Below, in pieces: positions 2,433 to 53,503 of a DNA stretch of 64,000 bases. This DNA is from Candidatus Omnitrophota bacterium (GTDB lineage: Bacteria; Omnitrophota; Gorgyraeia; Gygaellales; Profunditerraquicolaceae): positions 22,884-86,883 of the forward strand of contig JAQURC010000007.1 in assembly GCA_028715785.1 (NCBI GenBank), given 5' to 3'. The notes beneath the pieces are model-generated. The model had not been told where the DNA came from and did not search any database. It was given only the letters and a program-made list of their open reading frames with translations. The position numbers and the translations under genes are program-made. Each line of letters starts with the position of its first letter. Positions within the stretch are counted from its first letter, which is position 1.

Positions 2433-2441
2433 TGGGAAAAA

Positions 2442-7606: not shown

Positions 7607-8373
7607 TCTAAAATATATGTCTTCCAGGCGTTTTCAAAATCTTCCATACCGGCAAAAGAATATGCCTTTGATAAAGCTCTGGCTAAATTTTTATCGTCCC
7701 GCAGGCTCTGGCAGAAAAATACGAACCTGTCTCTGCCAAACTCTGAAATTAAATACTTTACCAGGCTATACGATTCCGCATAAAATAATTCTACCTTTGC
7801 CCTGTCTCTTGAACCGGACACCTCTGTCCGGCTTAACTCATCCAGGCTAATGAAATTACCCTGCCTTAGCTTATTGGCCAGATACGCCTTTACCGAAGAA
7901 ATATCCCTCTGCTGATAGCCGGCGACTCCTTCCTGGAGCCAAAGGGGGACGGCTGGATTATTAAAACCCACCATCTCGTTAAAAATAATATGCGCCAATT
8001 CATGCGGAAGGATATTATCCAAAAATCCCGGGGCGGTTTGAAAAGTCATAATTGTCTTGCTGGCGACATTTGCCTCTCCTGCCGACCAGTCCGCGGCATG
8101 GGTTTCTTTTTTGTATTCCTCATGGTTATTAAAGAGATAAATTTTTGCCCGGTTATCCCAGGTCCAAAAATTAAAACGGTTAAAGCCTAAATCCTCAGTA
8201 ATACTATTATAACAGTTCTCGGCTTTTTGAGCCAACTCATTGAGTGAATTTTCCGAGGCATCTTTATAAAAAACCACAAAATGCGTGCTTTTAAATACCT
8301 GCCAACCCTGGCCATCCGCAAAGACAGCCAATGGAAGCAACAAGAATATAAAGAATAATTTAAATCGGCGCAT
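7603..8373 (-). CDS. secreted HExxH zinc metallopeptidase-like protein (gluzincin/Peptidase_MA-like), embedded in the dcw cluster
   Basis: 256 aa with an N-terminal signal peptide (MRRFKLFFIFLLLPLAVFA). A HELAHIIF motif is followed 24 aa later by LWLQEGVAGY, giving an HExxH...E arrangement. The start overlaps the murG stop and the stop overlaps the murC start. Confidence 0.6.
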   Translation of the reverse strand: MRRFKLFFIFLLLPLAVFADGQGWQVFKSTHFVVFYKDASENSLNELAQKAENCYNSITEDLGFNRFNFWTWDNRAKIYLFNNHEEYKKETHAADWSAGEANVASKTIMTFQTAPGFLDNILPHELAHIIFNEMVGFNNPAVPLWLQEGVAGYQQRDISSVKAYLANKLRQGNFISLDELSRTEVSGSRDRAKVELFYAESYSLVKYLISEFGRDRFVFFCQSLRDDKNLARALSKAYSFAGMEDFENAWKTYILE

Positions 8374-9491
8374 TAATTTAAACTTAACACTTCCTTAGCT
8401 AATAAACAAGAGGCATCCGGGACAGAAAACTGCGCGTATGCCTGGCGCATGGCTTCTAGCTTCTCCGGATCTGCTAAAAATACATTTAATTTATCGCTTA
8501 ATTTTTCCACAGACAATTCCTCATCTTTGATGATCAGGGCGGCCCCGGCATCCGCCAGTATACGGGCATTGGCCTCTTGATGGCCGTAAGCAAAAGGATA
8601 AGGAATCAATATCGCCGGGATCCTGAATTTCTGCAATTCCGAGATTGTCGCCGCTCCCGAGCGGCAGATTACCAGGTCCGCTACGCTATAAGCATATTGC
8701 ATGGCCGGAAAAAATTCAAACAACCCGCAGCTTAAATCCAAAGAGCCATATTTTGATTTAAGCCGGGGATAATCCCGGGTTCCCGAAATATGTATCAGTT
8801 GCAGGCCGTCTTTTTTTGGATAAGCAGTTATTGCCTCAAAACAAACAGAATTTAACTTGACCGACCCCTGGCTTCCTCCGGTAATTAATATATTGAATTT
8901 TCCTTCCTTAAACTTAAAAAAATCCAACGCCTGCTTTCTATCTATCAGGATCAAATCCTTGCGCAGAGGATTACCCGTTACGGCAATTTTTTTAGCGGAT
9001 ATATTTAGATATTTATTTGTCTGGCTAAAGGACACCGCTACCCTGTCAGCCAACTTAGCCAATAACCGGTTTGCCCTGCCGGGAATAACATTCTGTTCAT
9101 GAATTATGGTTTTTATCCTGAATAACCAGGCCCAGAAGATCAGGGCTACAGTATTAAGGCTGCCGAATCCAACCACCACATCCGGCCGGAATTTTAAAAT
9201 AATCAGCATCCCTTCCCAGGCGCCCAATAAAAATGAACACGCGCCGGCGATATTCCTGCCGCTTAAATTAAAACTTAAAGCAGCCGCGTGGATGTATTTA
9301 ATTTGCGCAAATCCAACGGGGATATTATTATCCTTGCTTCTCTTTGGTAAGACTAAGAGCAAATCAGCGCATGAATCCTTTAATGCATCTACCAAAGCCA
9401 GCGCGGGAAAAATGTGCCCGCCGCTTGAGCCGCTGACAACCAAAACACGCATTAGTGAATCTCCGTTAAGGATACTCTCCGGTACGGGCAA
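8373..9491 (-). CDS. murG: UDP-N-acetylglucosamine--N-acetylmuramyl-(pentapeptide) pyrophosphoryl-undecaprenol N-acetylglucosamine transferase
   Basis: 372 aa with a GT28 fold (VVSGSSGGHIFPALAL...GGSQG). Confidence 0.9.
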   Translation of the reverse strand: MPVPESILNGDSLMRVLVVSGSSGGHIFPALALVDALKDSCADLLLVLPKRSKDNNIPVGFAQIKYIHAAALSFNLSGRNIAGACSFLLGAWEGMLIILKFRPDVVVGFGSLNTVALIFWAWLFRIKTIIHEQNVIPGRANRLLAKLADRVAVSFSQTNKYLNISAKKIAVTGNPLRKDLILIDRKQALDFFKFKEGKFNILITGGSQGSVKLNSVCFEAITAYPKKDGLQLIHISGTRDYPRLKSKYGSLDLSCGLFEFFPAMQYAYSVADLVICRSGAATISELQKFRIPAILIPYPFAYGHQEANARILADAGAALIIKDEELSVEKLSDKLNVFLADPEKLEAMRQAYAQFSVPDASCLLAKEVLSLN

Positions 9492-10560
9492 TGTTGATTA
9501 ATATGCCCAGGCTGACCATATCAAATATCAGCGAAGAACCGCCATAGCTGATAAAGGGCAGCGGTAAACCTTTCGTGGGAAAAACCCCGCAAGAAACACC
9601 GATATTTACAATCGCCTTAAGGGAAATCATCAGGACCAGCCCCAGGGCAAGAAAATATCCGAATTTATCCTGGGCATTCTTGATAATTTTAAGCCCCTGC
9701 TGGATAAAGATCATAAAGAGCGCGACTATTCCCAGTGTACCGGCCAAGCCCAGCTCTTCTCCGATAATCGAAAAAATAAAATCCGTGTGGGCGGCCGGAA
9801 GATAAAAAAGCTTCTGTTGTGAATGCCCAAGCCCCCTGCCGAATAATCCGCCGGAGCCGATGGCAATCTGTGATTGGATAATCTGAAAGCCCGTGCCCTT
9901 AGGGTCGAGCCAGGGGTTTAAAAACGCCAGGATCCTGCTGCGCCGGTAAGGGACTTTAAAAACCAAAAGATAAAGCGCCGGCAAACTGCAAAGCAATAAA
10001 CTCAAAATATAACTTCCTCTTGAGCCGGCGACAAAAAGCATGATCAGGATTACGCTGCCCAAAGCAATGACCGTACCCAGATCCGGCTGTAAAAGTATGA
10101 GCAAAGCGATTGCCCCCAATACGCATACCGGAGGTATAAATCCTTTAAGCAGCAGCTTGATCTTGTCTCCTTTGCGGCAAATAAAATCTGAAATATAAAT
10201 AATCAGCGCCAGGTTGGCAAACTCCGCCGGCTGGAAGCTGATAAATTTAAATCTAAACCAACGCCTGGCTCCGGAGACCTCCCTGCCGATGCCGGGAATA
10301 AGCACTAAAACAAGCAGGGCAAAAGCGATCCAAAGCAACAGGCGGGCGTGTTTTCTGAACAGGTGATAATCAACAAGCATGACTAAGAAAGTCAATAATA
10401 GCCCTGCCAGTAAAAAAAATAAATGCCGTTTTAAAAAATAAAAACTATCTCCGTACTTCTCCCAGGCATAAATACTTGAAGAGCTATAAATCATCACTAT
10501 GCCGATACAGATAAGCAGGACTGATATAGTAAACAGATTAATCCGTGTTTTTCTAACCAT
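9466..10560 (-). CDS. ftsW: peptidoglycan glycosyltransferase FtsW (SEDS family)
   Basis: 364 aa, polytopic, with SEDS signature regions. Sits in the dcw position between murD and murG. Confidence 0.88.
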   Translation of the reverse strand: MVRKTRINLFTISVLLICIGIVMIYSSSSIYAWEKYGDSFYFLKRHLFFLLAGLLLTFLVMLVDYHLFRKHARLLLWIAFALLVLVLIPGIGREVSGARRWFRFKFISFQPAEFANLALIIYISDFICRKGDKIKLLLKGFIPPVCVLGAIALLILLQPDLGTVIALGSVILIMLFVAGSRGSYILSLLLCSLPALYLLVFKVPYRRSRILAFLNPWLDPKGTGFQIIQSQIAIGSGGLFGRGLGHSQQKLFYLPAAHTDFIFSIIGEELGLAGTLGIVALFMIFIQQGLKIIKNAQDKFGYFLALGLVLMISLKAIVNIGVSCGVFPTKGLPLPFISYGGSSLIFDMVSLGILINIARTGEYP

Positions 10561-11830
10561 CTATTGAGGCTGCGCTGCCTAAATTCAGCACAATTTCCTT
10601 AAAGGCCCTGCCCCGGTCTTCGTAATCTTTGAACATATCAAAACTCGAGCACATCGGCGATAATAATACCGAATATCCCGGCTTGGCCAAAACAAATGCC
10701 TTCTCTACCGCCTCCTTTAAACTGGAGGCATTTTGTATCGGAAATTCACCGCCAAGCGCAGCGGCGATCTTCTCTTTTGCCTCTCCGATAAGGACCAGGT
10801 GTTTAACCTTGTCCCGGGCGCACTCGCGGATTACCCGGTAATCAATCCCTTTGTGCCTGCCTCCGGCAATAAGGATTATGGGGGTATTGATATTCTCAAT
10901 TGCCCAGATTGCCGAATCTGCCGTCGTTGCTTTGGAGTCATTGATAAATTTTACCCCGTCAATTTCCCGCACATCCTCCAGGCGGTGCTGGATCCCTTTG
11001 AATTTACCAAAGACATCCAGAATCAACCCTTTATCAATCCCCAATATTCTCCCGACACTAAGGACTGCGCTCTGATTAGGGTTGAGGCCATCCTGCTTGT
11101 TAAAAAAAACGACTTTTGATTTCGCCTGGGCGGCAATCTCTTTAAGCAAAGCGTCATCCGCGTTTAAAATTAAAAAATCATCCTGGCCCTGATTCAGCAT
11201 AATCCGCTTCTTGGCATCCAAATACTCCTGCATGTTATTATAGCGGTCAAGATGATTGGGGGTTAAATTCAAAATCACCGCAATTTTAGGCTTAAAGCCC
11301 CTGATCGTCTCAAGCTGGAAGGAGCTTACCTCAAGGACAACAAAATCGCCCTCCTGCATTGCCTCCACTTCACCGCAGAATGGATTGCCGATATTTCCGC
11401 ATACAAAAACTCTCTTTCCTGCCGCAGCCAAAACTTTTCCGATCAAGGTAGTCACCGTGGTTTTCCCGTTTGAACCGGTTACCGCGATAATCTGGGCAGG
11501 ACATAAGATACTTGCCACCTCAATTTCACTGACGACCGGTATATTAAATTCGCCTGCCCACTTGATCGGCAGGGCATCCGCAGGCACCCCGGGAGAGATA
11601 ACCACTAAATCCGCCTGCTTGATAAAATCCCGGCTGTGCCTGCCCAATTCAACTGAAATATCGCCTGAACAAAGTTTGGCGCAAGCCTCTTTGGTCTGCG
11701 CATTATCTTTGTTATCCGTAATGCTCACGGAAGCCCCCAGCCCATGCAACAGGTTAACGCAGGCTATCCCGGAGCGGGCAAGGCCGACAATGGTTATCTT
11801 TTTGTTTTTAAAGTAACTGCTATTACGCAT
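10553..11830 (-). CDS. murD: UDP-N-acetylmuramoylalanine--D-glutamate ligase
   Basis: 425 aa with a Mur ligase fold (ITIVGLARSGIA...VTGSNGKTTVTT). Confidence 0.9.
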   Translation of the reverse strand: MRNSSYFKNKKITIVGLARSGIACVNLLHGLGASVSITDNKDNAQTKEACAKLCSGDISVELGRHSRDFIKQADLVVISPGVPADALPIKWAGEFNIPVVSEIEVASILCPAQIIAVTGSNGKTTVTTLIGKVLAAAGKRVFVCGNIGNPFCGEVEAMQEGDFVVLEVSSFQLETIRGFKPKIAVILNLTPNHLDRYNNMQEYLDAKKRIMLNQGQDDFLILNADDALLKEIAAQAKSKVVFFNKQDGLNPNQSAVLSVGRILGIDKGLILDVFGKFKGIQHRLEDVREIDGVKFINDSKATTADSAIWAIENINTPIILIAGGRHKGIDYRVIRECARDKVKHLVLIGEAKEKIAAALGGEFPIQNASSLKEAVEKAFVLAKPGYSVLLSPMCSSFDMFKDYEDRGRAFKEIVLNLGSAASIDG

Positions 11831-11833
11831 AGG

Positions 11834-12922
11834 TTATCTGATTTTTAACGTAACTAAGGTAAAGAGGGCAAGTAAACCGGCAACGATCCAGAACCTGACA
11901 ATTACTTTGTTCTCAGGCACATCCAAAAACTGAAAATGATGGTGCAGCGGGGCGATTCTAAAAATACGCTTTTTGGTCAGCTTGTAAGTTCCCACTTGCA
12001 ATATAACCGAGAGCGCCTCCAGGACAAATATGCCTCCGACAATGATCAGCAGCATCTCTTTTTTGATCAATAACGCCACTGTCCCGATAGCCCCGCCTAA
12101 GGCCAGCGATCCGACATCTCCCATGAAGATCGAGGCAGGATAACAGTTAAACCAGAGAAAACCCAAACCCGCTCCCACGATACTGGCGCAAAAAATAGTC
12201 AGTTCTCCGGCGCCTTTGATATAAGGGATCAGGAGGTAATTGCTTAAATTAAGGTTGCCGGAAACATAGCTTAACACGCTAAAGGCAATGCCCACCATCA
12301 CCATGATGCCGATAGCCAGCCCGTCTAGTCCGTCGGTGAGATTCACGGCATTGGATGAACCGGTAATTACCAGGATCACAAATAAAATATACAAACCGTC
12401 CAAATCAAAACCGCCGCCTTTGAGAAAAGGAATCTCAAGCCTGGCATTATACTGAGTATCCATAATGATAATTATACCCAAGATCAAACCCAGGATAACC
12501 TGGCTGGCAAGTTTTACGCTGGGAGAAATGCCCCTGGCCTTGTTTTTTATCTGCTTAAAATAATCATCCATAAATCCGGTCAAGCCCAGCCAAACAGTGC
12601 TGAATAAAACAACCCAAATACAGCGATGGGTAATATCCGACCAGAGCAGGGTTGAAACTACCACTGCCCCAAGTATAAGAATCCCTCCCATCGTCGGAGT
12701 GCCCTGCTTATTGTGATGCAGCTCATCCAGCTTCAAGCTATCCGCTTTATTTATCTTCTCTCCGACTTTAAGCGCCTTTAATTTTTTGATTAACGGCGGG
12801 CCGAAAATCAGGCTCAGGATAAAAGCAGTCAAGGCAGCCATGACCGCGCGAAAGGTAATGTAGCGGAATATATTGAAAGCAAAAATTAAATCCCTAAGAG
12901 GATAAAATAAATGGTAAAGCAT
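11834..12922 (-). CDS. mraY: phospho-N-acetylmuramoyl-pentapeptide transferase
   Basis: 362 aa polytopic membrane protein with MraY motifs (NAVNLTDGLDGLA, VGSL). Confidence 0.9.
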   Translation of the reverse strand: MLYHLFYPLRDLIFAFNIFRYITFRAVMAALTAFILSLIFGPPLIKKLKALKVGEKINKADSLKLDELHHNKQGTPTMGGILILGAVVVSTLLWSDITHRCIWVVLFSTVWLGLTGFMDDYFKQIKNKARGISPSVKLASQVILGLILGIIIIMDTQYNARLEIPFLKGGGFDLDGLYILFVILVITGSSNAVNLTDGLDGLAIGIMVMVGIAFSVLSYVSGNLNLSNYLLIPYIKGAGELTIFCASIVGAGLGFLWFNCYPASIFMGDVGSLALGGAIGTVALLIKKEMLLIIVGGIFVLEALSVILQVGTYKLTKKRIFRIAPLHHHFQFLDVPENKVIVRFWIVAGLLALFTLVTLKIR

Positions 12923-14283
12923 TAAACTTTAAAAACCTCCTCCATTTTCATCGACCGGGACCCCTTTACCAGGATTATATCGGAAACGCCCGGAGATATT
13001 TTATCGAACAGTAAATCCCTGGCCTGCGGGGCGCTGGCGCAACAAAATATATCTTTACGCTTAAAGCCTCCCTCTGCGGCTGCCTGGGCCGTGATCCGGG
13101 CCAAGCTGCCCACTGCTACTAACACATCACAGGTATTAGTTATACTCCTGGCGATTTGCCTATGCAATAATTCTTTTTGCCTGCCTAACTCCAGCATATC
13201 CCCCATAATTAAAATTTTTTTACCTTTGCACTTGGCGGCAGTTAGAGCCGTAAGCGCCGCTTCCAAGGAAAGGGGATTGGAATTGTAGGTATCGTCGATA
13301 AAAGTAAGCCCCTTAAATTCAATAAGATTAAGCCTGCCCTTGGGAAATTTGAAAGCAGCCAGCCTTGCGGCAATTTCAGGATAACTCAAGCCCAATATCC
13401 TGCTCACCGAAATTGCGGCTAAGGCGTTATAGATATTATAATAGCCCAAGGTGGATAATGCAAAAACAAATTTGGAGTTGACTTCAAATTCTAATTTAGC
13501 GTTACGGAATTTGATCGCGGATGCGCAAAAATCGCTCTTCTCGTTAATCCCGTAAGTAAAAACATGCGCCCCCTTATCCTTGCGTGTAATTATACGTTTG
13601 AGCAATTTGTCGTCGGCGCAAACAACCGCAATTCCGGGCTTGGCTAAATTATCCAGCAGGGTTGATTTCTCTTTCAAAACCCCGTTTAAATTTCTTAAAA
13701 ACTCAAGGTGGCTTAAGCCGATATTGGTAATTACCCCGATATTAGGACAGGCAATCCTTGCCAGGTAATCGACCTCCCCGAAATGATTAGTGCCTATCTC
13801 AACTGCCGCAAAATCATCTTTTTCCGAAAGCCGGATTAATGTCTGGGGCAGGCCGATCTGATTATTCTTGGTCCCTTCATTTTTCAATACCCGGGCATTG
13901 CCTGATAAAATCCAGGCGATCATCTCTTTAGTTGTGGTCTTGCCGTTTGAACCGGTAACGGCAATAACCGGCAGCTTAAATTTTTGCCTCTGGAACCTTG
14001 CTATGTCCCCTAAAGCCAAAGTCGTGTCTTTTACCTTAACCACCGCTATCCCTTCAGGGATCGGGCATTCAGGCATTCTTTCGACAATTAAACCGCCGGC
14101 TCCTGACTTTAAAGCCCCGGCAATAAAATCATGGCCGTCAAAATTATTTCCCTTTAAAGCCAAAAACGCCTCCTGCGGCTTTATTCCCCTTGAATCGGTA
14201 GAGACAGTCTTCAGCCTATCCGCCGGCTTTCCCTGGATAAGCTTACCGCCTGCGGCTTTGATTATTTCATTGACTTTAAACAC
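12922..14283 (-). CDS. murF: UDP-N-acetylmuramoyl-tripeptide--D-alanyl-D-alanine ligase
   Basis: 453 aa with a Mur ligase fold (VIAVTGSNGKTTTKEM). Confidence 0.9.
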   Translation of the reverse strand: MFKVNEIIKAAGGKLIQGKPADRLKTVSTDSRGIKPQEAFLALKGNNFDGHDFIAGALKSGAGGLIVERMPECPIPEGIAVVKVKDTTLALGDIARFQRQKFKLPVIAVTGSNGKTTTKEMIAWILSGNARVLKNEGTKNNQIGLPQTLIRLSEKDDFAAVEIGTNHFGEVDYLARIACPNIGVITNIGLSHLEFLRNLNGVLKEKSTLLDNLAKPGIAVVCADDKLLKRIITRKDKGAHVFTYGINEKSDFCASAIKFRNAKLEFEVNSKFVFALSTLGYYNIYNALAAISVSRILGLSYPEIAARLAAFKFPKGRLNLIEFKGLTFIDDTYNSNPLSLEAALTALTAAKCKGKKILIMGDMLELGRQKELLHRQIARSITNTCDVLVAVGSLARITAQAAAEGGFKRKDIFCCASAPQARDLLFDKISPGVSDIILVKGSRSMKMEEVFKV

Positions 14284-15677
14284 TTCAGGACCACCTCTTT
14301 ATCGTTAAAATGCACGGCCCCATCTTTTAAGACCTGATAATTTTCATGGCCTTTACCGGCAAGCAGCAAACAATCGTCTTTTTTGGCCATAGATAACCCC
14401 GCGCGGATGGCTTCAAAACGCCCGGGCTTGCGGCAGTAATTATTTTTATCAATACCCGCGCAGACATCTTCGATTATCCGCAGCGGATCCTCGGAGCGGG
14501 GGTTATCGCTGGTAATAATCGCGTAGTCTGCCAGCTCCGTAACCACCCTGCCCATTTTCGGCCGCTTTAGCTTATCGCGCTCTCCTCCGCAGCCAAAGAC
14601 TACGATCATCCTGCCCTTGACCAACGGCCTTAAGGCGCTGATGACATTAAATAGCGCATCCGGAGTATGCGCGTAATCCACAAAAATACTGTATCCTCTT
14701 TTACAGACAACCTTCTCCAGCCTGCCGCAGACATTCTTGAATTTTTCTATGGCGGACTTGATATCTTTTATGCTTAGTTTCTCGCTTATGCCCCAGGCAA
14801 TAGCCGCCAGCATATTATAAATATTATGCCGGCCCACAAGGTGCGTTTTGATCCGCAGATTTATTTTTGGCGCAACCAAAGTAAATTCAGCCCCATGCAT
14901 GTCAAAATCAATATCTTTAGCCATAACCGCCGAAGGCCTTTTTATGCCATAAGTCAGGATCTTAGCGCCAGTCAACCGCTTGATCCGGCGGCCATAGCTG
15001 TCATCGTTATTGATTATTGCCACTCCGGATGAAGGCAAAGAACGAAAAAGCCTGGCTTTTGCCTGGAAATAATTTTCTAAATTCTTATGATAATCCAGAT
15101 GGTCCTGGGTAAGGTTGGTAAAAATAGCGCGGTTAAAGTTGATCCCCGCTACCCTGTCCTGGTCCAAAGCGTGGGATGAAACCTCCATGGCGCAATATTT
15201 AACGCCTCCGGCATACATCCGGGCAAGCAAACTTTGCAATTCTACGCAGCCCGGCGTGGTATTTTTAGATTCGATCACTTTACCTTTAAAATGATAATCG
15301 ATCGTGCCGATTACTCCGCAGGCGTGTCCGGATTCTTTAGCCAAAGCTTCAATCAAATATGAAATAGTCGTTTTACCATTGGTACCGGTGGTACCGACGA
15401 CCTTAAGTTTAGCCGAAGGAAACCCGTAAAATTTGTTTGCCGCTTTGGCTAAAAATTTACGGCAATCATTTACCGTAATTAATTTGACCTTTCCGGGAAT
15501 TTTTATCTGCGGCCTTTTTTTCTGAACAACCACGGCGCTGGCGCCCCGGGCAATTGCCTCATTGATAAAACAGCTTCCATCCTGGCGGTTCCCCTTGATG
15601 GCTACAAAAACAAAACCTTTCTTTACCTGCTTGGAGTCGGAAGTAATGCCTTTAATTTTAATACCTGCGATTTTCAT
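14262..15677 (-). CDS. murE: UDP-N-acetylmuramoyl-L-alanyl-D-glutamate--2,6-diaminopimelate ligase
   Basis: 471 aa with a Mur ligase fold (VGTTGTNGKTTISY). Confidence 0.9.
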   Translation of the reverse strand: MKIAGIKIKGITSDSKQVKKGFVFVAIKGNRQDGSCFINEAIARGASAVVVQKKRPQIKIPGKVKLITVNDCRKFLAKAANKFYGFPSAKLKVVGTTGTNGKTTISYLIEALAKESGHACGVIGTIDYHFKGKVIESKNTTPGCVELQSLLARMYAGGVKYCAMEVSSHALDQDRVAGINFNRAIFTNLTQDHLDYHKNLENYFQAKARLFRSLPSSGVAIINNDDSYGRRIKRLTGAKILTYGIKRPSAVMAKDIDFDMHGAEFTLVAPKINLRIKTHLVGRHNIYNMLAAIAWGISEKLSIKDIKSAIEKFKNVCGRLEKVVCKRGYSIFVDYAHTPDALFNVISALRPLVKGRMIVVFGCGGERDKLKRPKMGRVVTELADYAIITSDNPRSEDPLRIIEDVCAGIDKNNYCRKPGRFEAIRAGLSMAKKDDCLLLAGKGHENYQVLKDGAVHFNDKEVVLKCLKSMK

Positions 15678-17371
15678 TGTGCCAGGGCCACAGTAGGCAT
15701 TTCATTTCCTTTTAGATAACGTATCGCATCCCCGGCGACCTTTTGGAACACCGGAGCAGCGACTACCCCGCCAAAATAAACCGGATGCGGCTCATCAACC
15801 GTTACGACAATAGCCAGCAATGGATCCTCAGCGGGGGAAAAACCGATAAAAGAAGCGACAAATTTATTATGTGAATAAGCGCCGTTGGCTTCAAGCTTCT
15901 GGGCGGTCCCGGTTTTTCCCGCGGCGCTGAATCCGGAAACCTTGGCCAGCCTGCCGGTGCCCTCCTCTACTGCTCCGGTAAGGATCTTCTTGATGCGCAT
16001 GGCAGTATCGACTGAAATTACCTTGCGGATCAATGCGGGCTTATTCTGCTTGATCACCTGGCCCTGATTATCGCGCACCGAATCAATAATATAAGGCTTC
16101 ATCAGTTGCCCGCCATTGGCAATTACCGAAATTGCGCTGGCCAATTGTAAAGCAGTCACCCCAACCTCCTGTCCGATAGGTATGGCGGTAATCGATGTCT
16201 TTGACCACTGGCGCACCGGCTTGATCATTCCGGAAATTTCTCCCGACAGGTCAATCCCCAATTTTGACCCAAAACCAAAAGCCTTTAAATACCGGTAAAT
16301 CGTGTCGGGGCCCAAAATTTGGGCGACTTTTACGGTGCCGATATTGCTTGACTCTTCAATTACCTGCTTAAAAGTAAGCAAGCCATGCGACTGATGATCA
16401 TGCAAGATGCGTCCGGCTACCCGATAAGATCCATTCTCGCAGAAGAAAGCGTCCTCTTCTTTAACCTTTTTCTCTTCGAGGGCAGCCGAGGCAGTGACAA
16501 TTTTAAAAACCGATCCGGGCTCAAACAAATCGCAAATAGCCCGGTTGCGTATCGCATCCTTGCCGACTCCGGAATAGTGATTTAGATCATAATTGGGGCG
16601 GCTGGCCATAGCCAAAATCCTGCCCGTATGAGGGTCCATCACGATGATGCTGGCGCCTTTTGCGTGAAAACTCTTAAAGGCCTTATCCAGCTCTCTTTCG
16701 GCGATATATTGAATAACCTCATCGATAGTCAGAACCAGGTCCAAACCATCGACGGGCAAAACCATCTTTTCCCAAATGTCTAATTTTTTTAAGCGCGCAT
16801 CGCGTAAAAAAACCGCCCAGCCGGGTATCCCCGCCAGATACCGGTTAAAATCCCTTTCTACCCCCTCCAAACCCAGATTATCCATTCCGCTAAAACCAAT
16901 TACGTGGCTGGCCAGATAGCTGTTAGGATAAATACGCTTGGTCTCCTTCATAAACCCCAGGCCCTTAATATTTAATTTCTTGATTGCCTCGGATTTCTCC
17001 GGAGCCAGTTTACGCGCTATCCAGATAAATGACTTTTTGCGGCTTAATCTTTCCTGCAGATAAGCGCGCTCCACTCCCAATATAGGCAACAGCTGCCTGA
17101 TCACAATTTCTTTATTCTTAATCGCATTGGGTACCGCATACAAGGAATCCAGGGACATGTTAAATGCCTGCATCTTAAGATTACAGTCATAGATTGCCCC
17201 GCGCCGCGGCTCAAGCTCCACAAGTTGGTTATGCTGCTTATTCGCTATTGAAGTAAGGTAATTTGAACGGAAAAACTGGATGAAAAAAAGGCGGCTTACG
17301 CAGATCAGGAGAAAAATAAAAAAGACTAAAAATACCGCCTCGTTCCTTCGGCGATAATTGCTGATATACAT
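15674..17371 (-). CDS. ftsI: peptidoglycan D,D-transpeptidase FtsI (class B PBP)
   Basis: 565 aa with an N-terminal TM anchor, a PBP dimerisation domain, and a transpeptidase with SVFK, SSN and KTGT motifs. Confidence 0.9.
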   Translation of the reverse strand: MYISNYRRRNEAVFLVFFIFLLICVSRLFFIQFFRSNYLTSIANKQHNQLVELEPRRGAIYDCNLKMQAFNMSLDSLYAVPNAIKNKEIVIRQLLPILGVERAYLQERLSRKKSFIWIARKLAPEKSEAIKKLNIKGLGFMKETKRIYPNSYLASHVIGFSGMDNLGLEGVERDFNRYLAGIPGWAVFLRDARLKKLDIWEKMVLPVDGLDLVLTIDEVIQYIAERELDKAFKSFHAKGASIIVMDPHTGRILAMASRPNYDLNHYSGVGKDAIRNRAICDLFEPGSVFKIVTASAALEEKKVKEEDAFFCENGSYRVAGRILHDHQSHGLLTFKQVIEESSNIGTVKVAQILGPDTIYRYLKAFGFGSKLGIDLSGEISGMIKPVRQWSKTSITAIPIGQEVGVTALQLASAISVIANGGQLMKPYIIDSVRDNQGQVIKQNKPALIRKVISVDTAMRIKKILTGAVEEGTGRLAKVSGFSAAGKTGTAQKLEANGAYSHNKFVASFIGFSPAEDPLLAIVVTVDEPHPVYFGGVVAAPVFQKVAGDAIRYLKGNEMPTVALAQ

Positions 17372-27161: not shown

Positions 27162-27173
27162 AAAAAATTAATG

Positions 27174-27247
27174 TCGGGGCGGTGCGACTTGAACGCACGA
27201 CCTCTTGCTCCCGAAGCAAGCGCTCTACCAAACTGAGCCACGCCCCG
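27174..27247 (-). tRNA. tRNA-Pro (anticodon CGG); 3' CCA not encoded
   Basis: The reverse complement reads CGGGGCGUGGCUCAGUUUGGUAGAGCGCUUGCUUCGGGAGCAAGAGGUCGUGCGUUCAAGUCGCACCGCCCCGA. It has a 7-bp acceptor stem, D and T arms, a UUCGGGA anticodon loop and discriminator A. Confidence 0.9.
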
Positions 27248-27344
27248 TATTAGTTCAACAAGTATACCAGAAATCCAGAGTATGCGCAATAATAGAACTC
27301 TGCGCGAGTCCAAGGCTCGCCACCCGCTAACAACATGCATAAAT

Positions 27345-27559
27345 GGCACTGACAAGTTTCGCAGCGAATGTCGATTTTAGCAAAAGCAGCTTGAGCAGTG
27401 AAGGTATCCCCGTGGAGCGGTTAGCGACAAAACGGGGACGGCGAGGATGTTTGAGTGGTTTTTGCAAGAGCAAAAACCACGAGTTCCGCAGCCGCTGAAC
27501 TGCGAAAGACCTTTTGCGTTAAAAAATCGACTTGAGCGAGAAGCTTGGCAGGGCCATTT
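27345..27559. ncRNA. Unclassified structured RNA, copy 2 (paralog of 2218-2432)
   Basis: About 70% identical to copy 1. Every helix is kept by compensatory changes: GCAAAAG/CUUUUGC replaces GCCAAUG/CAUUGGC, GCAGU/ACUGC replaces GUAUUC/GAAUAC, CCCCGU/ACGGGG replaces CCCGGUG/CACCGGG, and the 11-bp hairpin GUGGUUUUUGC-AAGA-GCAAAAACCAC replaces GGCCGUCUCCGC-UAGA-GCGGGACGGCC. Single-stranded blocks (UUCGCAGCGAAUGUCGAUUUUAGC, AGCGACAA, GAGUUC, GCAGCC, CGAAAGA, GCGUUAAAAAAUC) are conserved. Confidence 0.65.
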
Positions 27560-27616
27560 GTAACATGCGGCGAAAAATTTCAGCGACGGAAGTAAAAGAC
27601 GGAAAGCTTAAGTTAG

Positions 27617-31001: not shown

Positions 31002-32210
31002 TTAGAGCTCTAACTGATGCCCTAGTTTCTCTTTTTTTGTTTTTAAATATTTATAATTTTCCGCGTTAGGCTCAATCTCTAAAGGCAGGCGCTCGGAAAC
31101 CTCCAGGCCATAACCTTCTAAACCCACAATCTTGCGCGGGTTATTCGTCAATAACCTTATCTTTTTAACCCCTAAATCTACCAGGACCTGGGCCCCGATG
31201 CCGTAATCGCGCAGATCAGCCTTATGCCCCAATGCTTCATTGGCCTGGACAGTATCCATACCCTGATCCTGAAGATTATAGGCGCGCATCTTCTCAACCA
31301 ATCCAATGCCCCTGCCCTCCTGGTTCATATAAAGGATTACGCCTTTCTTCTGGCGGGCAATAATCTGCATGGCCTTCTCTAACTGCCGGCCGCAGTCACA
31401 GCGTAATGAACCAAAAACATCTCCTGTCAAGCACTCCGAATGCACGCGCACTAATATTGATTCATCCGACCAGCTGCCCATGCACAAAGCAATATGCGTT
31501 TGGCCGTTAGTTTTATCGCGATAAATAATTAATTTAAATTCTCCGAATTTTGTCGGCAATTTCGTCTGGACAATTGCTTCCACTAATTTTTCTCTCCTGC
31601 GGCGGTATTCAATAAGGCCAGCAATAGTGCAGATCTTTAAACTATGCTTCTTGGCAAACTCCAGGAGCTGCGGCAGGCGGGCCATGGAGCCGTCATCATT
31701 CATAATCTCGCAAATCACTCCGGCCGGATAAAGCCCGGCCAGGCGCATTAAATCCAGGCTGGCTTCTGTATGCCCTGCCCTGACTAAAACTCCGCCCAGG
31801 CGGCAGCGTAAAGGAAAAACATGCCCCGGACGGATCAAATCCTCCGGCTTGGTTTGAGGATTAATCAAAACTTCAATTGTCCTGGCCCGGTCATGGGCGG
31901 AAATTCCCGTAGTTACCCCGCGGGAAGCGTCCACCGAAATCATCCAGGCAGTCTTAAAAGGATCTTCTTTGGAAACCGCCAGAGTATTCTTAAGCATCGG
32001 GTCAAGCTCCAGGAAACGCAGCCTTTCTTCCTCCATCGGAACACAGATCAGCCCCCGTCCGAATTTAGCCATAAAGTTTATGTCTTCGGGCTTTACGCTT
32101 GAGGCAGCCATCACCAAATCGCCTTCATTTTCGCGGTCCTCATCGTCAATGACGACCACCATCTTTCCGGCTTTTAAATCCTCAAGAATTTCTGGAATAC
32201 TGTTAAACAC
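31002..32210 (-). CDS. ribBA: bifunctional 3,4-dihydroxy-2-butanone-4-phosphate synthase / GTP cyclohydrolase II
   Basis: 402 aa with a DHBP synthase N-half ([12 protein letters not shown]) and a GCHII C-half (CxxC...C zinc site, RCDCGRQL). GTG start at 32208-32210. Confidence 0.9.
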
Positions 32211-32259: not shown

Positions 32260-32274
32260 CGCATTAATTTTAAT

Positions 32275-32392
32275 CTTCTCTCATCTGGACTATCACCATC
32301 GGCCCTGGAATCTCACCAGATCTGCTCGCCACTGAACTAATGGCAGGCTCGCGGGCTAAACCGCCGGTAAGGATTTACACCTTGCCCTAAAG
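32275..32392 (-). promoter_or_regulatory. FMN riboswitch (RFN element) aptamer controlling ribBA-ribH-nusB-PHP-ribD-ribE
   Basis: The minus strand reads ...AGGGCAAGGUGUAAAUCCUUACCGGCGGUUUAGCCCGCGAGC...CAGAUCUGGUGAGAUUCCAGGGCCGAUGGUGAUAGUCCAGAUGAGAGAAG. This matches the conserved RFN cores GGGCAGGGUGAAAUUCCC..ACCGGCGGU..AGCCCGCGAGC and GGUGAGAUUCCGGAGCCGACGGUAUAGUCCGGAUGGGAGAAG. Confidence 0.85.
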
Positions 32393-32406
32393 ATTAATTG
32401 TTTATT

Positions 32407-43513: not shown

Positions 43514-44236
43514 TCATTCCTCCAGCGCTTCCTGGATCTTAAAGCGGACAGTATCTCTAAGAGAAGCGAAATCTCCGGGGCCAAACCCGTCGGTTGCAAT
43601 CTCCGGCAGCACAGTAACCGTCCCGTCCACTTTAGCCTTAAAAATCCAACTGCCCTTAGGGATTGCCTCCTGCGTCCCCTTGATGCAAACCGGGAGGATC
43701 GGCTTTTTTTCTTTGATCGCCAGCTTAAATGCGCCGTTCTGAAATTCACCCATCTGGTCATTGCTGCTGCGGGTGCCTTCAGGGAAAAATAATACCGACA
43801 TATCTTTACGCAGCCAGGCGCTTGCCTGGTGGTAAATCTCTTTTATGCTGGCAAAGTCGCCGCGGGTAAGCTTGATGTGTTTAATCAGGCTTAAGCACCA
43901 GCCGACAAAAGGAAGCTTGAATAAACTAGCTTTAGCTACCCATTTAAATTGCGTCTTGAGTTGATAGAGCACCGCGATATCGGCCATGCTCTGATGATTA
44001 GCAATGATTACGTAGGTTTTTTTATGGTCGATATTCTCAAGGCCTTTGACCCTCACATTCCAAAAAGGATTTAAGCCGATTACCGCATCCGACCACCAGA
44101 AACACTGCGCGTGAGTTATCTTCTTATTTTTATCAAACGGAAAAAGCAGAATGGTTAAAAACAAGACCACAAAAAACAGCAGGATGGTAATTAGAATACT
44201 GCCGATCCAGATACCTATAGAAATAATCGCTTTCAT
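43514..44236 (-). CDS. plsC: 1-acyl-sn-glycerol-3-phosphate acyltransferase
   Basis: 240 aa with the HX4D motif (NHQSMAD) and an FPEGTR motif. Has its own TTGACA-17-TATAGT promoter at about 44249-44277. Confidence 0.85.
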   Translation of the reverse strand: MKAIISIGIWIGSILITILLFFVVLFLTILLFPFDKNKKITHAQCFWWSDAVIGLNPFWNVRVKGLENIDHKKTYVIIANHQSMADIAVLYQLKTQFKWVAKASLFKLPFVGWCLSLIKHIKLTRGDFASIKEIYHQASAWLRKDMSVLFFPEGTRSSNDQMGEFQNGAFKLAIKEKKPILPVCIKGTQEAIPKGSWIFKAKVDGTVTVLPEIATDGFGPGDFASLRDTVRFKIQEALEE

Positions 44237-44374
44237 GCTCCTCGTTTAACTATATCCCAAATCCCGAGGATTGTCAACTTTTAGATTCCGTGTTTATTCT
44301 TACAGAAAGGCCCTCAAGCCACAAGCAGGTAATATAATAAGTCTTTCCTTAATCAATTTCTTCTATCTCCTTTT

Positions 44375-46279
44375 TTATTCATAAGATAGAATAATTCTAA
44401 ATGTCTCTCTAGACTTATCAAAATTTTTTGGTAATAGTGGAAATGGCGAAGAATCTTTAACCGCTTTTACTGCCCAAGAAGCCAATGACGGATCAGCCGT
44501 GTTCAGGATTTTCGGTTCATCTACTAAATCTCCTTGACGGGAAACTGTAAAACTAAGGAATACCTCCCCTTTTCCCTCTTTCGGCAAATTTAACTTCGAA
44601 AAGCGGTTAATTTTATCGATGACAATAAGAGAATATTCTCTTAACCATGCACTATCAGGCCCTAAAGCTGCCATGGCTGTTTCTTCACTGTCAGTTGAAA
44701 CTTTACTAATGATAACCTTGCCCTTAACCATTTTTGCCACAGCTCCGTCTTTAGGTTTTATCTCTGAGAAATCCGAATAGGAAGTCTCTCCCGACATTAT
44801 GTGCGGAGTCAAAAGGATTACTAAATCACTTTTCTCCAGCTTATCGTCTATACTCCTAAAAAAATATCCCAATAACGGGATATCTCCAAGTATAGGAACT
44901 TGCTTCACGGTCTTTATTCTTTTATCTTTTCTTAAACCGGCAATGATTACTGTTATGCCATCTTTTACCGTAACAGTAGTCTCTGATTCGGAGGTCGTAA
45001 CAATAGGAACATAATTATGTGCTGTGGCTGTGCCAAAATCTTTATATTCGCTGGAGCTTATTTCAGGTTTAATCTTCATAGTTACGAAATTATCTTTATT
45101 AATTGCAGGAGTAACATAAAGCTTGATGCCCACATCAACAAAATTTACCTGGTCAGCCGTTATTTCCGTTCCGGTTCCGGATTGCGAAATAGACTGAGTA
45201 ACATATGCCTCTTTGGTACCTACAAGTATCTTCGCCTCTTGGTTATTTAATGCCATCACCCGCGGGCTTGAGAGTATTTTCGTGTCCCCTATTGTGCGTA
45301 AAATATCTATAATTGCTTGAGACTGCCCCTTTTTAGTGGGAGTAGAATTGGCCGTGCCTAAAATTAAGGCTCCGGTCGTATTTATGGGAAACCCCATCTT
45401 AACATCAAAATATTTTTGAATCCAAAAGTTCCAATCTACCCCCATCTTGAATTGATCAGACGGAGTAATTTCGATAATCTGGGCATCAATTAAAACCTGC
45501 GCGGTCTTTTCGTCAAAAGCCTTGACGATCTCTTCAATCTCCGCAAGCTTCGCAGGATAATCAGTTACAGCAATTTTGTTCGTGCGCTCATCAAATCTAA
45601 TTAACCCCACGCCTTTGGTAATAACTTCCTGCAATTTGGGGTTTAATTTATCCGCCAACGCATAATTAAGGTTGAATATCTTTGTCTTAAGCGGCTGGTC
45701 GGTTGATTTAATAAAATCTTCCATAGCCTTGACCTTCTCAGGCCCGTCTATTAAGATAACGGTGTTTGAGCCCTGATCCACAACTACCTTTCCGAGATCG
45801 CTTTTTAGCTGGGTTAAAGCTACTGCCGAATCCACTGCTTTTGAATATTTTAAGTGGATAATCTTGGCCTGTTTCTTATTCTGGAAACTTTCTCCATAAA
45901 GTAGCTCATAATCCCTTTGTGTCATAACATTAACGATTTGGCCCTTCTTCTCATAAGCAAGGTCATTGGCTGAAATGACTATTTCAAAAACATCATTGAT
46001 TTCTACGTCTTTTAAAAATAAAGTTACCCTTCCAACAACATTCTTCCCTATCACAATATTCATCCCTGAACGCGCAGAGATAATCTTTAATACATCGACC
46101 ACATCCATACCTTTAACATCTAAGGTGATTTTATTCGAGACAACAACGGAACGCTCAATAGTTTCCATAGGGGCAGCAAACGGTTTGTTTTTCTCTTCTA
46201 CGCCATTCTGCTCATCTTGCGCATAAACGGCAGATACAAAAAATATTAGAACCAACATTAACAATAACTTATTTTTCAT
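44375..46279 (-). CDS. gspD: secretin (GspD/PilQ family) with C-terminal TonB-C-like extension
   Basis: 634 aa with a signal peptide, N-terminal secretin N domains and a secretin domain (ILGDIPLLGYFFRS). The last ~100 aa resemble a TonB C-terminal fold (EGKGEVFLSFTVSRQGDLV...ASWAVKAVKDSSPFPLLP). Confidence 0.85.
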   Translation of the reverse strand: MKNKLLLMLVLIFFVSAVYAQDEQNGVEEKNKPFAAPMETIERSVVVSNKITLDVKGMDVVDVLKIISARSGMNIVIGKNVVGRVTLFLKDVEINDVFEIVISANDLAYEKKGQIVNVMTQRDYELLYGESFQNKKQAKIIHLKYSKAVDSAVALTQLKSDLGKVVVDQGSNTVILIDGPEKVKAMEDFIKSTDQPLKTKIFNLNYALADKLNPKLQEVITKGVGLIRFDERTNKIAVTDYPAKLAEIEEIVKAFDEKTAQVLIDAQIIEITPSDQFKMGVDWNFWIQKYFDVKMGFPINTTGALILGTANSTPTKKGQSQAIIDILRTIGDTKILSSPRVMALNNQEAKILVGTKEAYVTQSISQSGTGTEITADQVNFVDVGIKLYVTPAINKDNFVTMKIKPEISSSEYKDFGTATAHNYVPIVTTSESETTVTVKDGITVIIAGLRKDKRIKTVKQVPILGDIPLLGYFFRSIDDKLEKSDLVILLTPHIMSGETSYSDFSEIKPKDGAVAKMVKGKVIISKVSTDSEETAMAALGPDSAWLREYSLIVIDKINRFSKLNLPKEGKGEVFLSFTVSRQGDLVDEPKILNTADPSLASWAVKAVKDSSPFPLLPKNFDKSRETFRIILSYE

Positions 46280-46299
46280 ATCTTGTCTTGCCCCCTTTA

Positions 46300-46932
46300 T
46301 CAGATACTTAACTCGAACCTCTGGCCGCTGTAATTTAATATGATTTTACCGTCACCGATATTCTCAACCTGAAATTCCCCCATCATCTGGCCTTTAGTTA
46401 CATAGTAGGTCTTCTGCGACTTCTTATCTTCAATAACCGCCTGCGGGCTATCGCCCGATATTACACCTAGCAAATTAATATCCTTAATTAAATTTGCTCC
46501 GACTGTAATATTAGATTCTTGGGTTGACTGAGCGGATACCACCCCGAATATTTGTTTATTTTTTATGCCTTGAGTATAAAAATCATATGGCTTTATTTCT
46601 TCCTGTTTTATTACCTCTTTTGATTCAGCTATTTTATCAAAAGATTTCTCTTGCAAAAAAATAATCTTCTTGGTAACAAATAAAGGATAGGCAAAAGCGC
46701 TTAGAAGATATAAAAAAGAGGTAGTAAGCCCGATTAAGATTAAAGTATTTGTATTAAGCTGCGAAAGGTATTTTTCAAATTTGAAAACCCGCTCTTGATG
46801 TAGAACGCCTCCCTGTATTTTCACCCACACAGGAGCATTTAGATTGCCTTCTGCTAACACGGGAATACGGATTTTCTTCCGACCCCTTATGAGCCGGAGT
46901 AATTTTTCCTCTGGAGAAATATTATCCTTCAT
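46300..46932 (-). CDS. GspC/PilP-like bitopic secretin-interacting protein
   Basis: 210 aa with one TM helix and a C-terminal beta-sandwich-like region (YYVTKGQMMGEFQVENIGDGKIILNYSGQRFELSI). Sits between exeA and the secretin. Confidence 0.6.
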   Translation of the reverse strand: MKDNISPEEKLLRLIRGRKKIRIPVLAEGNLNAPVWVKIQGGVLHQERVFKFEKYLSQLNTNTLILIGLTTSFLYLLSAFAYPLFVTKKIIFLQEKSFDKIAESKEVIKQEEIKPYDFYTQGIKNKQIFGVVSAQSTQESNITVGANLIKDINLLGVISGDSPQAVIEDKKSQKTYYVTKGQMMGEFQVENIGDGKIILNYSGQRFELSI

Positions 46933-47750
46933 GCATTTATCTCATGAATTTCAAGAAGACTATTTATTGTCTGGACGTCAACTTGCACCTGCTCCTTCAT
47001 AACTATTATCTCAAGAGCATCATGGCAGATCATAGCAATCTTACGGGGATGCCCTTGAGTGAGTTGATAAATCATTTTGATTGCATCGTCCGTAAATAAT
47101 GGTGTTGGATTATTATAGCCTGCCTGGTTTAACCTAAACTCAACCATTTTCTTAGTTTCAGGCTCATCAAATGGATTAATCGTATATTTTAAAGCAATCC
47201 TATCCATAAAATTACGCATCCGCTTTACCCGCGGCAGTAATTCTACTTGAGTCATAATTACAAGTTGCAATAGTTTATATTCATTAGTTTCATAATTAAG
47301 CAATGTCCTTAAGGCCTCTAGATTTTCTAAAGTAATCTTCTGCCCCTCATCGATTAAGAGAACAATAGTTTTATCCTTGTCCACCCCTTGATAAAAAAGA
47401 TATTTTTCCAATGCTTCTTTAAGATCAAGGGCAGATTTAGACGAAGTGGTTATATCAAATAATCTAACTAAACTTTGCAGAAACTGGAATTCAGATTTAT
47501 ATCCGGGATCTAAAATCATATGCAAAATGAAATCTTCCTCATCCTTAAAAGTTTGCAATAAAGTGCGCATTAAGGTGGTTTTACCAACCCCTACATCGCC
47601 TAAAATTAAACTTAAGCCCCTACGCAGCCTGATAGTTATTTCAAGACGCTTAAGAGCAGTTTCATGGCTTATGGACCGGTAGAAAAAATCCGGGTCAGGA
47701 CTGGTGGAAAACGGCTCTTTTTGTAAGCCCAGAACGCTATAATAACTCAT
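46929..47750 (-). CDS. gspA: ExeA/GspA-like AAA ATPase
   Basis: 273 aa with a Walker A motif (GDVGVGKTT) and Walker B motif (LLIDEGQ), an AAA_22 fold. Confidence 0.8.
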   Translation of the reverse strand: MSYYSVLGLQKEPFSTSPDPDFFYRSISHETALKRLEITIRLRRGLSLILGDVGVGKTTLMRTLLQTFKDEEDFILHMILDPGYKSEFQFLQSLVRLFDITTSSKSALDLKEALEKYLFYQGVDKDKTIVLLIDEGQKITLENLEALRTLLNYETNEYKLLQLVIMTQVELLPRVKRMRNFMDRIALKYTINPFDEPETKKMVEFRLNQAGYNNPTPLFTDDAIKMIYQLTQGHPRKIAMICHDALEIIVMKEQVQVDVQTINSLLEIHEINA

Positions 47751-47958
47751 CTTTAATTTCCTTTAACGACTTGCCTTCTTTTCTCAAGCTGCGGATTTTT
47801 TTTAATTTTTCCACAGTAGTTTCGTCAAAATAACGATACCTGGTTTCAGGACTGCGGTTAACTTCTTTAATCAGGCCAGTTTTTAAGTAGAATTTAAGCG
47901 TATAGACAGAAAAACCAGTTGTTCTTGATAAGTCTTTAATAAGCAATACATTAATCAT
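47737..47958 (-). CDS. MerR-family HTH transcriptional regulator (short)
   Basis: 73 aa with an N-terminal MerR-type HTH (IKDLSRTTGFSVYTLKFYLKTGLI). First gene of the gspA-C-D operon. Confidence 0.7.
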   Translation of the reverse strand: MINVLLIKDLSRTTGFSVYTLKFYLKTGLIKEVNRSPETRYRYFDETTVEKLKKIRSLRKEGKSLKEIKDELL

Positions 47959-47971
47959 AATTTTACTCTCA

Positions 47972-48013
47972 CTCTCTAACTAGAGAGTATAGCAGTAACT
48001 TACGACTTGTCAA
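47972..48013 (-). promoter_or_regulatory. Promoter (TTGACA-16-TATACT) with palindromic operator ACTCTCTA-GT-TAGAGAGT overlapping -10/+1
   Basis: The minus strand reads TTGACAagtcgtaagttactgcTATACTCTCTAGTTAGAGAGTgagagtaaaattATG. The palindrome arms are 8 bp. Confidence 0.55.
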
Positions 48014-48017
48014 ATAA

Positions 48018-48939: not shown

Positions 48940-49041
48940 AAACCCCTTGACTAATGGGGAGTATTACAACAGCTTTATGGACATCTGTATACGGCTTATA
49001 AACAGGTCAATATCATCTTTGATTAAAACATCAATAAATTA

Positions 49042-53493: not shown

Positions 53494-53503
53494 CTCTTCT
53501 CTC

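Follow-up and report, generated by a model that had tools for sequence, protein, structure and literature searches.

The 64,000-nucleotide (nt) stretch of the Candidatus Omnitrophota contig JAQURC010000007.1 analyzed here (positions 22,884 to 86,883; hereafter, the window) carries two copies of a sequence, element A, which on the evidence of comparative analysis is a previously unnamed family of RNA elements of ~225 nt restricted to Omnitrophota. The assignment of element A as a structured RNA is strongly supported by covariation among 52 distinct homologues, and we predict with high confidence that the plus strand is the functional one. The genes for this RNA behave as a low-copy dispersed repeat, in that they are gained and lost, turn up inverted, and are swapped between paralogues; the boundary of these swaps is the outer end of the closing helix, P1. 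As a working hypothesis, to which we assign slightly less than an even chance, we propose that a recombining dispersed repeat carries a new family of small structured RNAs; each copy would give rise to its own plus-sense transcript, P1 would set the ends of that transcript, and GA-rich basal loops would form a platform for protein.

The original prediction, made from the letters of the window, had placed a second copy of a structured RNA at 27345-27559, between tRNA-Pro and ribE. A copy is indeed present at this location; its limits lie further out, with the closing helix reaching 27339 and 27561. A profile search of the 64 kb identified exactly two copies of element A, both on the plus strand (nhmmer E-values of 8.4e-69 for copy 1 and 1.4e-63 for copy 2). 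These direct copies are 76.5% identical across the element proper, with aligned blocks at 78% (2173-2291/27300-27418) and 84% (2352-2431/27480-27559), and share an identical block of 27 nt, CAAGTTTCGCAGCGAATGTCGATTTTA, for which 0 occurrences are expected by chance. To the left of both copies the similarity runs on for ~45 nt, which correspond to the 3' arm of a separate element that we call U. In the pairwise alignment, the differences between the hairpins of the two copies are compensated changes, and P3, P7, and P10 of copy 1 all differ from those of copy 2 in this manner; the predicted fold of both copies is a long rod whose tip is Y-shaped. The copies and their parts are:

2211-2434, plus strand: element A copy 1, 224 nt, with a perfect P1 of 23 base pairs (bp) (nhmmer)
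27339-27561, plus strand: element A copy 2, a 223-nt rod with a Y-shaped tip (fold, covariation, nhmmer)
27339-27360 paired with 27540-27561, plus strand: closing helix P1 of copy 2 (fold)
27353-27379, plus strand: invariant 5' block that spans the inner portion of P1, the GA-rich internal loops (GCAGCGAAUG), and P2's 5' strand
27370-27378 (GUCGAUUUU) paired with AAAAUCGAC, plus strand: P2 of copy 2 (fold)
27407-27413 paired with 27432-27438, plus strand: hairpin P7 of copy 2 (fold)
27455-27465 paired with 27470-27480, plus strand: hairpin P10 of copy 2 (fold)

Fold, covariation, and functional strand

The predicted fold of copy 2 has an energy of -96.4 kcal/mol on the plus strand (z -7.8) and -80.1 kcal/mol on the minus strand (z -7.1), with the z-scores relative to shuffled sequence. 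From an alignment of 18 full copies, the RNAalifold consensus contains 68 pairs, of which 36 have compensated double changes. The main alignment comprises 52 distinct full-length copies, with the pairing structure taken from copy 2; here, 93.4% of cells form a standard pair compared to 39–47% when the 3' partners are slid by 1–3 columns, and both sides have changed in 38 of the 72 pairs. The covariation score of 0.319 was reached by 0 of 500 shuffled alignments (0.124 ± 0.005) and drops to ~0.07 upon sliding.

The consensus architecture begins with P1, which has 20–23 bp and follows the pattern AAAUG-NN-N-CUG-NNNN-GUUUUC, in which the N positions covary. Inward of P1 lie two GA-rich internal loops separated by a 2-bp helix, then the almost invariant 9-bp helix P2 followed by P3 to P6, and the apex of the rod is a three-way junction from which the hairpin P7 and the arm P8-P9-P10 emerge. 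P7 and P10 each exist in several wholly different versions, all internally compensated, and some copies have extra hairpins. By contrast with these helices, which vary in sequence and stay paired, the unpaired junction bases are invariant in the 52-copy alignment, and the 5' block at 27353-27379 is the same in both window copies and in nearly all homologues. Even a divergent subgroup (L091, L100, L124, and L126; L numbers denote the collected loci) keeps every loop motif and has a compensated change from U-A to A-U in P2; what we had set apart as a "type C" is such divergent element A and not a separate type. The combination of variable paired stems and nearly invariant unpaired bases points to a folded single strand under selection. 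A protein-coding gene was ruled out because the insertions and deletions are of arbitrary length and the stem changes are compensated, and no open reading frame (ORF) is conserved among the homologues. Similarly, a small ORF at an AUGGCG within element A was rejected because the U of its AUG is one half of a covarying U-A/C-G pair.

Orientation had been left open in the original prediction because the wobble evidence in the two copies was split. Both of the underlying observations, i.e. a single U.G in the P1 helix of copy 2 and a single C.A in copy 1 (in P2, pair 31-261), are correct, and the comparison of G.U versus A.C in homologous loci, which had been proposed as the way forward, assigned the element to the plus strand. 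Specifically, the minimum free energy (MFE) is lower on the plus strand in 51 of 52 copies, by a mean of 11.7 kcal/mol, and RNAalifold assigns the consensus an energy of -74.8 on plus compared with -52.0 on minus. In the 18-copy alignment, G.U occupies 59 cells and A.C 8. The raw count in the 52-copy alignment is 104 G.U versus 58 A.C, but P10, which aligns poorly, accounts for 27 of the latter; where the helices are well aligned, the intermediates between A-U and G-C are G.U with 0–1 A.C (e.g. pairs 46-315, 32-330, 65-232, 22-339, and 23-338). Because the plus strand of the window is C-rich throughout, deamination bias on the usual skew model would be expected to favor the opposite of this pattern. 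G.T is also tolerated in single-stranded DNA and, therefore, the asymmetry fixes the strand and not the type of molecule. Placement on the plus strand makes element A antisense to ribE and ftsA rather than a piece of their 3' untranslated regions (UTRs). Accordingly, of the two possibilities raised initially, the independent convergent transcript from the plus strand is the one that the MFE and wobble evidence supports, while an RNA on the minus strand that is 3'-UTR-derived or co-transcribed is disfavored by the same asymmetries. The distance of 10–57 nt between the upstream stop codon and the start of such a minus-strand RNA held at its upper end; at its lower end we measured 7 nt.

Distribution, gene context, and companion repeats

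To collect homologues, a 20-nt pattern from the invariant block was scanned against a collection of species-representative genomes and a metagenome collection. In the former, 35 stretches matched, of which ~22 are real, all from Omnitrophota metagenome-assembled genomes (MAGs), a few of these labeled Planctomycetales; the latter added 87 stretches, of which ~60 are real. Metagenome contigs from the Hainich H41/H43 wells are among those with element A. The element A profile matched 88 of the 133 collected loci (94 hits). All profile-matching loci with an organism label are from Omnitrophota MAGs or MAGs labeled Planctomycetales, and 0 of the pattern matches from other phyla match the profile. 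The named sources of FtsA and RibE homologues with 78–100% identity are almost all Candidatus Omnitrophota/Omnitrophica. Each MAG has ~1–6 pattern-matching copies, often at contig ends, with a tandem pair observed once. Pattern scans of viral contigs, phage records, and plasmid records gave no match to element A, and on this basis a phage or plasmid origin was rejected.

With Rfam 15 at the gathering threshold, only a flavin mononucleotide (FMN) riboswitch and a tRNA were detected in the window, and at E-values up to 10 both copies and eight homologous loci gave unrelated chance matches only. Among these, Poribacteria-1 (16.7 bits versus a threshold of 74.2) and RAGATH-28 (17.1 versus 45.3) did not recur in eight other copies and were discarded. 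Our literature searches returned no described structured RNA of Omnitrophota, and neither Rfam nor the literature searched describes a non-coding RNA specific to this uncultured phylum. Folds of this kind (~225 nt, ten helices, nearly 40 covarying pairs, and invariant loops) have earlier proved to be ribozymes, riboswitches, or the core of an RNA–protein machine. Moreover, a recombining structured RNA is a concrete case for how RNA genes spread and homogenize within genomes. On a practical note, element A breaks the assemblies of its host genomes, and none of the MAGs with a copy has it annotated.

The surroundings of the two copies are as follows; B is a third repeat, described below.

1306-1965, minus strand: gene for a YggS-type pyridoxal phosphate-binding protein, divergent from the block of U and copy 1
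2008-1981, minus strand: sigma-70-like promoter of the yggS-type gene (promoter scan)
2040-2203, plus strand: complete U element immediately 5' of copy 1; its closing helix pairs CUGCCUUGCCUUGUUUUC..GCAGGG with CCCUGC..GAAAUCAAGCCAAGCCA
2442-3698, minus strand: ftsA, which converges on copy 1 and has its stop codon 7 nt away from the element's 3' end
27173-27247, minus strand: tRNA-Pro(CGG), divergent from copy 2
27261-27289, minus strand: probable tRNA-Pro promoter TTGCGC-17-TATACT, recognized by eye; the same sequence precedes the tRNA in L128, which has no element A
27299-27329, plus strand: remnant of a U 3' arm (..CCAAGGCTCGCCACCCGCTA) directly 5' of copy 2
27570-27609, plus strand: remnant of a B 3' arm (GCGAAAAATTTCAGCGACGGAAGTAAAAGACGGAAAGCTT) between copy 2 and the ribE stop codon
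27617-28213, minus strand: ribE, riboflavin synthase gene (Lum_binding), convergent with copy 2

The genes flanking the two copies are all four on the minus strand, as are 44 of the 46 large ORFs in the window, and both copies are therefore oriented head-on to their surroundings. More generally, the neighbors of element A are unrelated housekeeping genes (lpxB, lpxK, msbA, a heptosyltransferase gene, bioA/D, rpsB, rplM, greA, ftsA, and ribE), and several sites are syntenic across species, including those at the heptosyltransferase gene, msbA/lpxB, bioA/D, and a PilZ-STAS gene. No nuclease, reverse transcriptase, transposase, or recombinase gene recurs within ~4 kb of element A; no RAYT/TnpA or TnpB gene lies within ~4 kb in 86 pattern-matching loci; and the partner genes of omega RNA, HEARO, tracrRNA, or retrons (IscB, TnpB, Cas, reverse transcriptase) were not found among the recurrent neighbors. 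Linkage to tRNA genes was also considered and dropped because only the window copy and L091 adjoin one.

Both neighbors could be called for 36 copies, in counts that include orthologous loci and are therefore not independent. With co-oriented genes on both sides, 18 copies (among them both window copies) are antisense and 6 are sense; a further 11 have divergent neighbors and 1 has convergent neighbors. The 5' end of element A faces a gene start in 29 of the 36, which we count in favor of a transcription unit of its own. The neighbor on the 3' side is convergent in 27 of 47 copies, again including both in the window, with its stop codon at -18 to +76 nt from the end of P1.

Element A is often accompanied by two further repeats. 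U is a separate rod-shaped repeat of 165–190 nt that has a closing helix of its own as well as a hairpin in which changes are compensated; it lies directly 5' of about half of the element A copies and also occurs alone. Its strand is ambiguous, in that the MFE is lower on the minus strand in 6 of 9 copies, yet the plus-strand consensus has 27 G.U versus 1 A.C. B is a third rod-shaped repeat of ~180 nt with complete copies in L001, L025, L057, L063, and L090; only its 3' arm is present in the window. A similar B remnant of 25 nt follows the ribE stop codon in L129, L130, and L132, which suggests that B is old at the ribE site. What we had earlier regarded as a "type B" variant of element A sharing the 5' block is, based on folding and alignment, this separate 180-nt rod preceded by an orphan 5' arm of A. 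The usual order is U, A, and B arm, all in one direction; A also occurs reversed between the same modules, and orphan arms are common.

Behavior at orthologous sites and competing explanations

Comparison of orthologous sites revealed how element A comes and goes. In L004 and L005, in which FtsA is 78% identical to that of the window, the ftsA-yggS gap is 57 nt and has no element, and in L004 the yggS promoter directly follows ftsA. The same gap in L001 (FtsA 93% identical), the closest relative, holds other content and a toxin–antitoxin pair. At the second site, tRNA-Pro and its TTGCGC-17-TATACT promoter directly follow ribE in L128 (RibE 89% identical), while in L129 (RibE 90% identical) the element is inverted and combines parts of both window variants as a chimera. 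The flanks of L020 and L085 are 99% identical until 5–8 nt from the outer end of P1, beyond which the two loci continue with different variants in opposite orientation. By eye, no target-site duplication was evident at the two filled-versus-empty comparisons (window versus L004 at ftsA-yggS and versus L128 at ribE-tRNA-Pro). The picture extends beyond the original prediction in three ways: element A is repeated several times per genome across Omnitrophota, at the ribE-tRNA-Pro site it is missing from one close relative and inverted in another, and two repeat remnants flank copy 2. The gain, loss, inversion, and swapping of element A could be a passive result of being repeated and palindromic: because the P1 arms are inverted repeats, ectopic recombination would be possible in either orientation.

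Several copies are arranged as outward-pointing inverted pairs that bracket 1–4 kb (L008/L119, 1332-1552 and 4002-4223; L048, 8304-8526 and 12636-12853; L069, 1391-1607 and 2738-2955), and these could mediate inversion of the enclosed segment, which in L008 contains a Gfo/Idh/MocA oxidoreductase gene and lpxB. We also observed a small recurrent palindrome (GGGGACGTCCTCTTAGGGGACACCCTTGATCAAGGGTGTCCCC...) in L040 (~2720-2800), in L085 (~3270-3380), and upstream of the copy in L039; in L040 it replaces P5–P7 of element A, and this copy is a probable pseudogene.

In the explanation that we favor, element A would be transcribed on its own, antisense to the surrounding genes, starting beside the promoter region of a neighbor. 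The long P1 duplex would define and protect the ends of the RNA, either through RNase III-type trimming or through transcription stopping in the U run that follows this helix. Protein would bind to a platform made of the invariant GA-rich basal loops, leaving the apical hairpins free to vary, and the RNA would act in trans as a stable RNA–protein particle rather than as a regulator of the adjacent gene. This outline resembles bacterial Y RNA and 6S RNA, in which the 5' and 3' ends likewise lie in a long helix, basal internal loops are conserved, the apex is variable, several paralogues occur per genome, and there is no link to adjacent genes. However, element A matches no Rfam model of these RNAs, even at E-values up to 10. 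6S RNA is a rod of ~180–200 nt with a large central bubble and one or two genes per genome, whereas element A has small internal loops, a branched tip, and up to 5–6 copies per MAG; and unlike Y RNA, it has no tRNA-like module and no rsr gene nearby. With the orphan RNAs raiA, OLE, ROOL, GOLLD, and HEARO it shares many covarying helices, invariant junction bases, a narrow range, and a function that cannot be deduced from context, but it has no match to them in Rfam 15, is smaller than most, and behaves as a recombining repeat; moreover, HEARO (omega RNA) adjoins the gene for the nuclease IscB, and element A has no such neighbor. Judging from helix length, a duplex of at least 20 bp between transcript ends that encloses a folded domain is also reminiscent of RNase III processing stems (rRNA flanks and 23S intervening sequences), although element A lies outside rRNA operons.

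A number of observations weigh against this explanation. Element A is dispensable at a given site, with ribE-tRNA-Pro empty in L128 and ftsA-yggS empty in L004 and L005; its orientation relative to the flanks flips between close relatives, and it is reversed at many orthologous sites; and truncated arms together with the disrupted copy in L040 look as those of a selfish repeat would. Scans of both ends for a conserved sigma-70-type promoter and an intrinsic terminator found neither. An A-rich run precedes P1 and CAUUU(U/A) comes after it, and a "hairpin" formed by P1 encloses ~180 nt. A TAnAAT box at the 5' end, conserved in many copies, was rejected as the -10 element of this RNA because it lies inside the covarying outer P1 and is replaced by other paired sequences in several lineages. 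A conserved module upstream was likewise rejected as a promoter; it is the 3' arm of U, which occurs on either side of A. The protein partner, finally, is conjecture.

Alternatively, element A might be a selfish, non-autonomous palindromic repeat of the MITE (miniature inverted-repeat transposable element), REPIN, or ERIC/BIME kind, in which the rod would be the substrate for mobilization as single-stranded DNA or RNA without a cellular function, and U and B would be sister families nesting in or beside A. We regard this as possible, if doubtful. It would account for presence and absence at the same site among relatives with 89–93% identical neighboring proteins, for opposite orientation at orthologous sites, for different A variants in opposite orientation on a 99%-identical flank with the break 5–8 nt from the P1 end, and for the nested and truncated mosaics of U, A, and B, the tandem and inverted pairs, the fourth small palindrome inserted in one copy, the frequent matches at contig ends, and the several copies per MAG. 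The ERIC/IRU, BIME/REP-REPIN, BOX, and Correia-type repeats are simple hairpins of 30–150 nt in which the arms are the conserved part. Element A is similar to them in its intergenic dispersal, imperfect palindromes that form long hairpins, AT-rich promoter-like ends, presence or absence at orthologous sites in either orientation, and modular mosaics of repeat types; it differs in being a multi-helix fold of 225 nt whose arms vary and whose unpaired loops are invariant, in occurring as a handful of copies per genome, in lacking target duplication, and in rarely lying between convergent genes. In particular, P1 arms that vary around invariant interior loops are the reverse of the inverted repeats of a transposon: as opposed to those of a MITE, the arms pair in every copy and differ in sequence with compensated changes, while the interior is conserved. 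In addition, the two filled-versus-empty comparisons lack a target-site duplication, no transposase or RAYT-type gene is nearby in 88 loci, a MAG has just ~1–6 pattern-matching copies, ten helices with compensated changes have been kept across deep divergence, and the single copy in 36 between convergent genes contrasts with the usual accumulation of neutral repeats there. Finally, the strand that forms the structure is mostly opposite to the neighboring genes, which would fit poorly with a mechanism based on single-stranded DNA of the lagging-strand template.

A bolder reading treats A, U, and B as three classes of rod-shaped RNA in a cassette system of non-coding RNA genes in Omnitrophota, in which each unit, delimited by its closing helix, would be exchanged or inverted and inserted anew at fixed intergenic sites, and the A RNA would be a new ribonucleoprotein scaffold, a ribozyme, or an RNA that promotes its own spread; we consider this unlikely.

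Less probable still is that element A functions from the minus strand as a cis element of neighboring mRNAs, i.e. an intercistronic or 3'-UTR stem that terminates, insulates, or stabilizes transcripts such as those of ftsA and ribE. The proximity of its 3' end to the stop codon of a convergent gene (-18 to +76 nt in 27 copies), the 18 of 36 copies that are antisense between co-oriented genes, the good fold of the reverse complement (z -7.1), and the A-rich run on one side of P1 with a U-rich one on the other, as in a two-way terminator, would all agree with such a role. However, the asymmetry in wobble pairs and energy favors the other strand, in 51 of 52 copies; the same junctions do without the element in L004 (yggS promoter after ftsA) and L128 (tRNA promoter after ribE); at 11 copies the flanking genes are divergent, an arrangement without an mRNA 3' end; and a terminator would not need the complex conserved interior.

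We also considered an invertible or exchangeable DNA switch, comparable to an inverton or shufflon, with the P1 arms as recombination sites and a core whose flipping would alter transcription toward the neighbors. In L114 (U3> <A B3>) and L084 (<A B3>), the core is indeed inverted with respect to constant flanking modules, the canonical arrangement being U3> A> B3>; several such states occur among contigs of one metagenome (Ga0268283), different assemblies show opposite orientations, and the break is at the P1 end. Yet the sequences of the P1 arms differ between copies and no single site for a site-specific recombinase is evident; the inverted copies differ in variant as well, and hence are replacements and not simple flips; elsewhere, larger blocks including U are inverted; no recombinase or invertase gene recurs nearby; and the internal covariation would stay unexplained, all of which makes a switch quite improbable. 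A riboswitch or other 5'-leader element controlling a downstream gene on the same strand, as might be suggested by the msbA locus, where in 6 of 8 genomes element A precedes the co-oriented msbA by ~100 nt, and by several lipid A or envelope genes among the neighbors, is very improbable: it is contradicted by the gene arrangement, in which the 3' neighbor is a convergent gene for 27 of 47 copies, the two in the window included, by downstream genes that are unrelated, and by the lack of a terminator or a Shine-Dalgarno-sequestering platform after P1.

Other features of the window and of related loci

The FMN riboswitch is at 32269-32398 on the minus strand (110 bits; gathering threshold 66), upstream of a 402-residue ORF (31002-32210) that heads the riboflavin operon ending with ribE. 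The cell-wall and division cluster at 1306-17371 (minus strand) ends with ddl-ftsQ-ftsA and then yggS-proC; no ftsZ follows ftsA in the window, L001, L002, or L004. A block of low GC content at ~44000-60000 (0.34–0.41 compared to 0.45 elsewhere) encodes a secretin, type II secretion system (T2SS) proteins T2SS-C and T2SS-F, PilM/PilN-like proteins, and several proteins without a Pfam match, and may be an acquired pilus or secretion island. At 52880-53011, two direct repeats of 60 nt, 72 nt apart and 72% identical, lie around the point where ORF 50607-52859 overlaps ORF 52843-53493, the latter without a Pfam match.

Among the related loci, L128 has a gene for a large serine recombinase of 529 residues (3151-4740, minus strand) just past tRNA-Pro, which suggests an integrated mobile element at this tRNA in a locus that has no element A. 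In the ftsA-yggS gap of L001 (11655-12922) lie a 177-residue protein and an AbiEii toxin gene pair, and a perfect inverted repeat of 24 bp (AATCAAGGGGACGGTTCTGTTTTT...) adjoins yggS there. In L130 and L132, runs of the short tandem repeat TATAAGC(T) occupy the space behind ribE, 60–120 nt after its stop codon.

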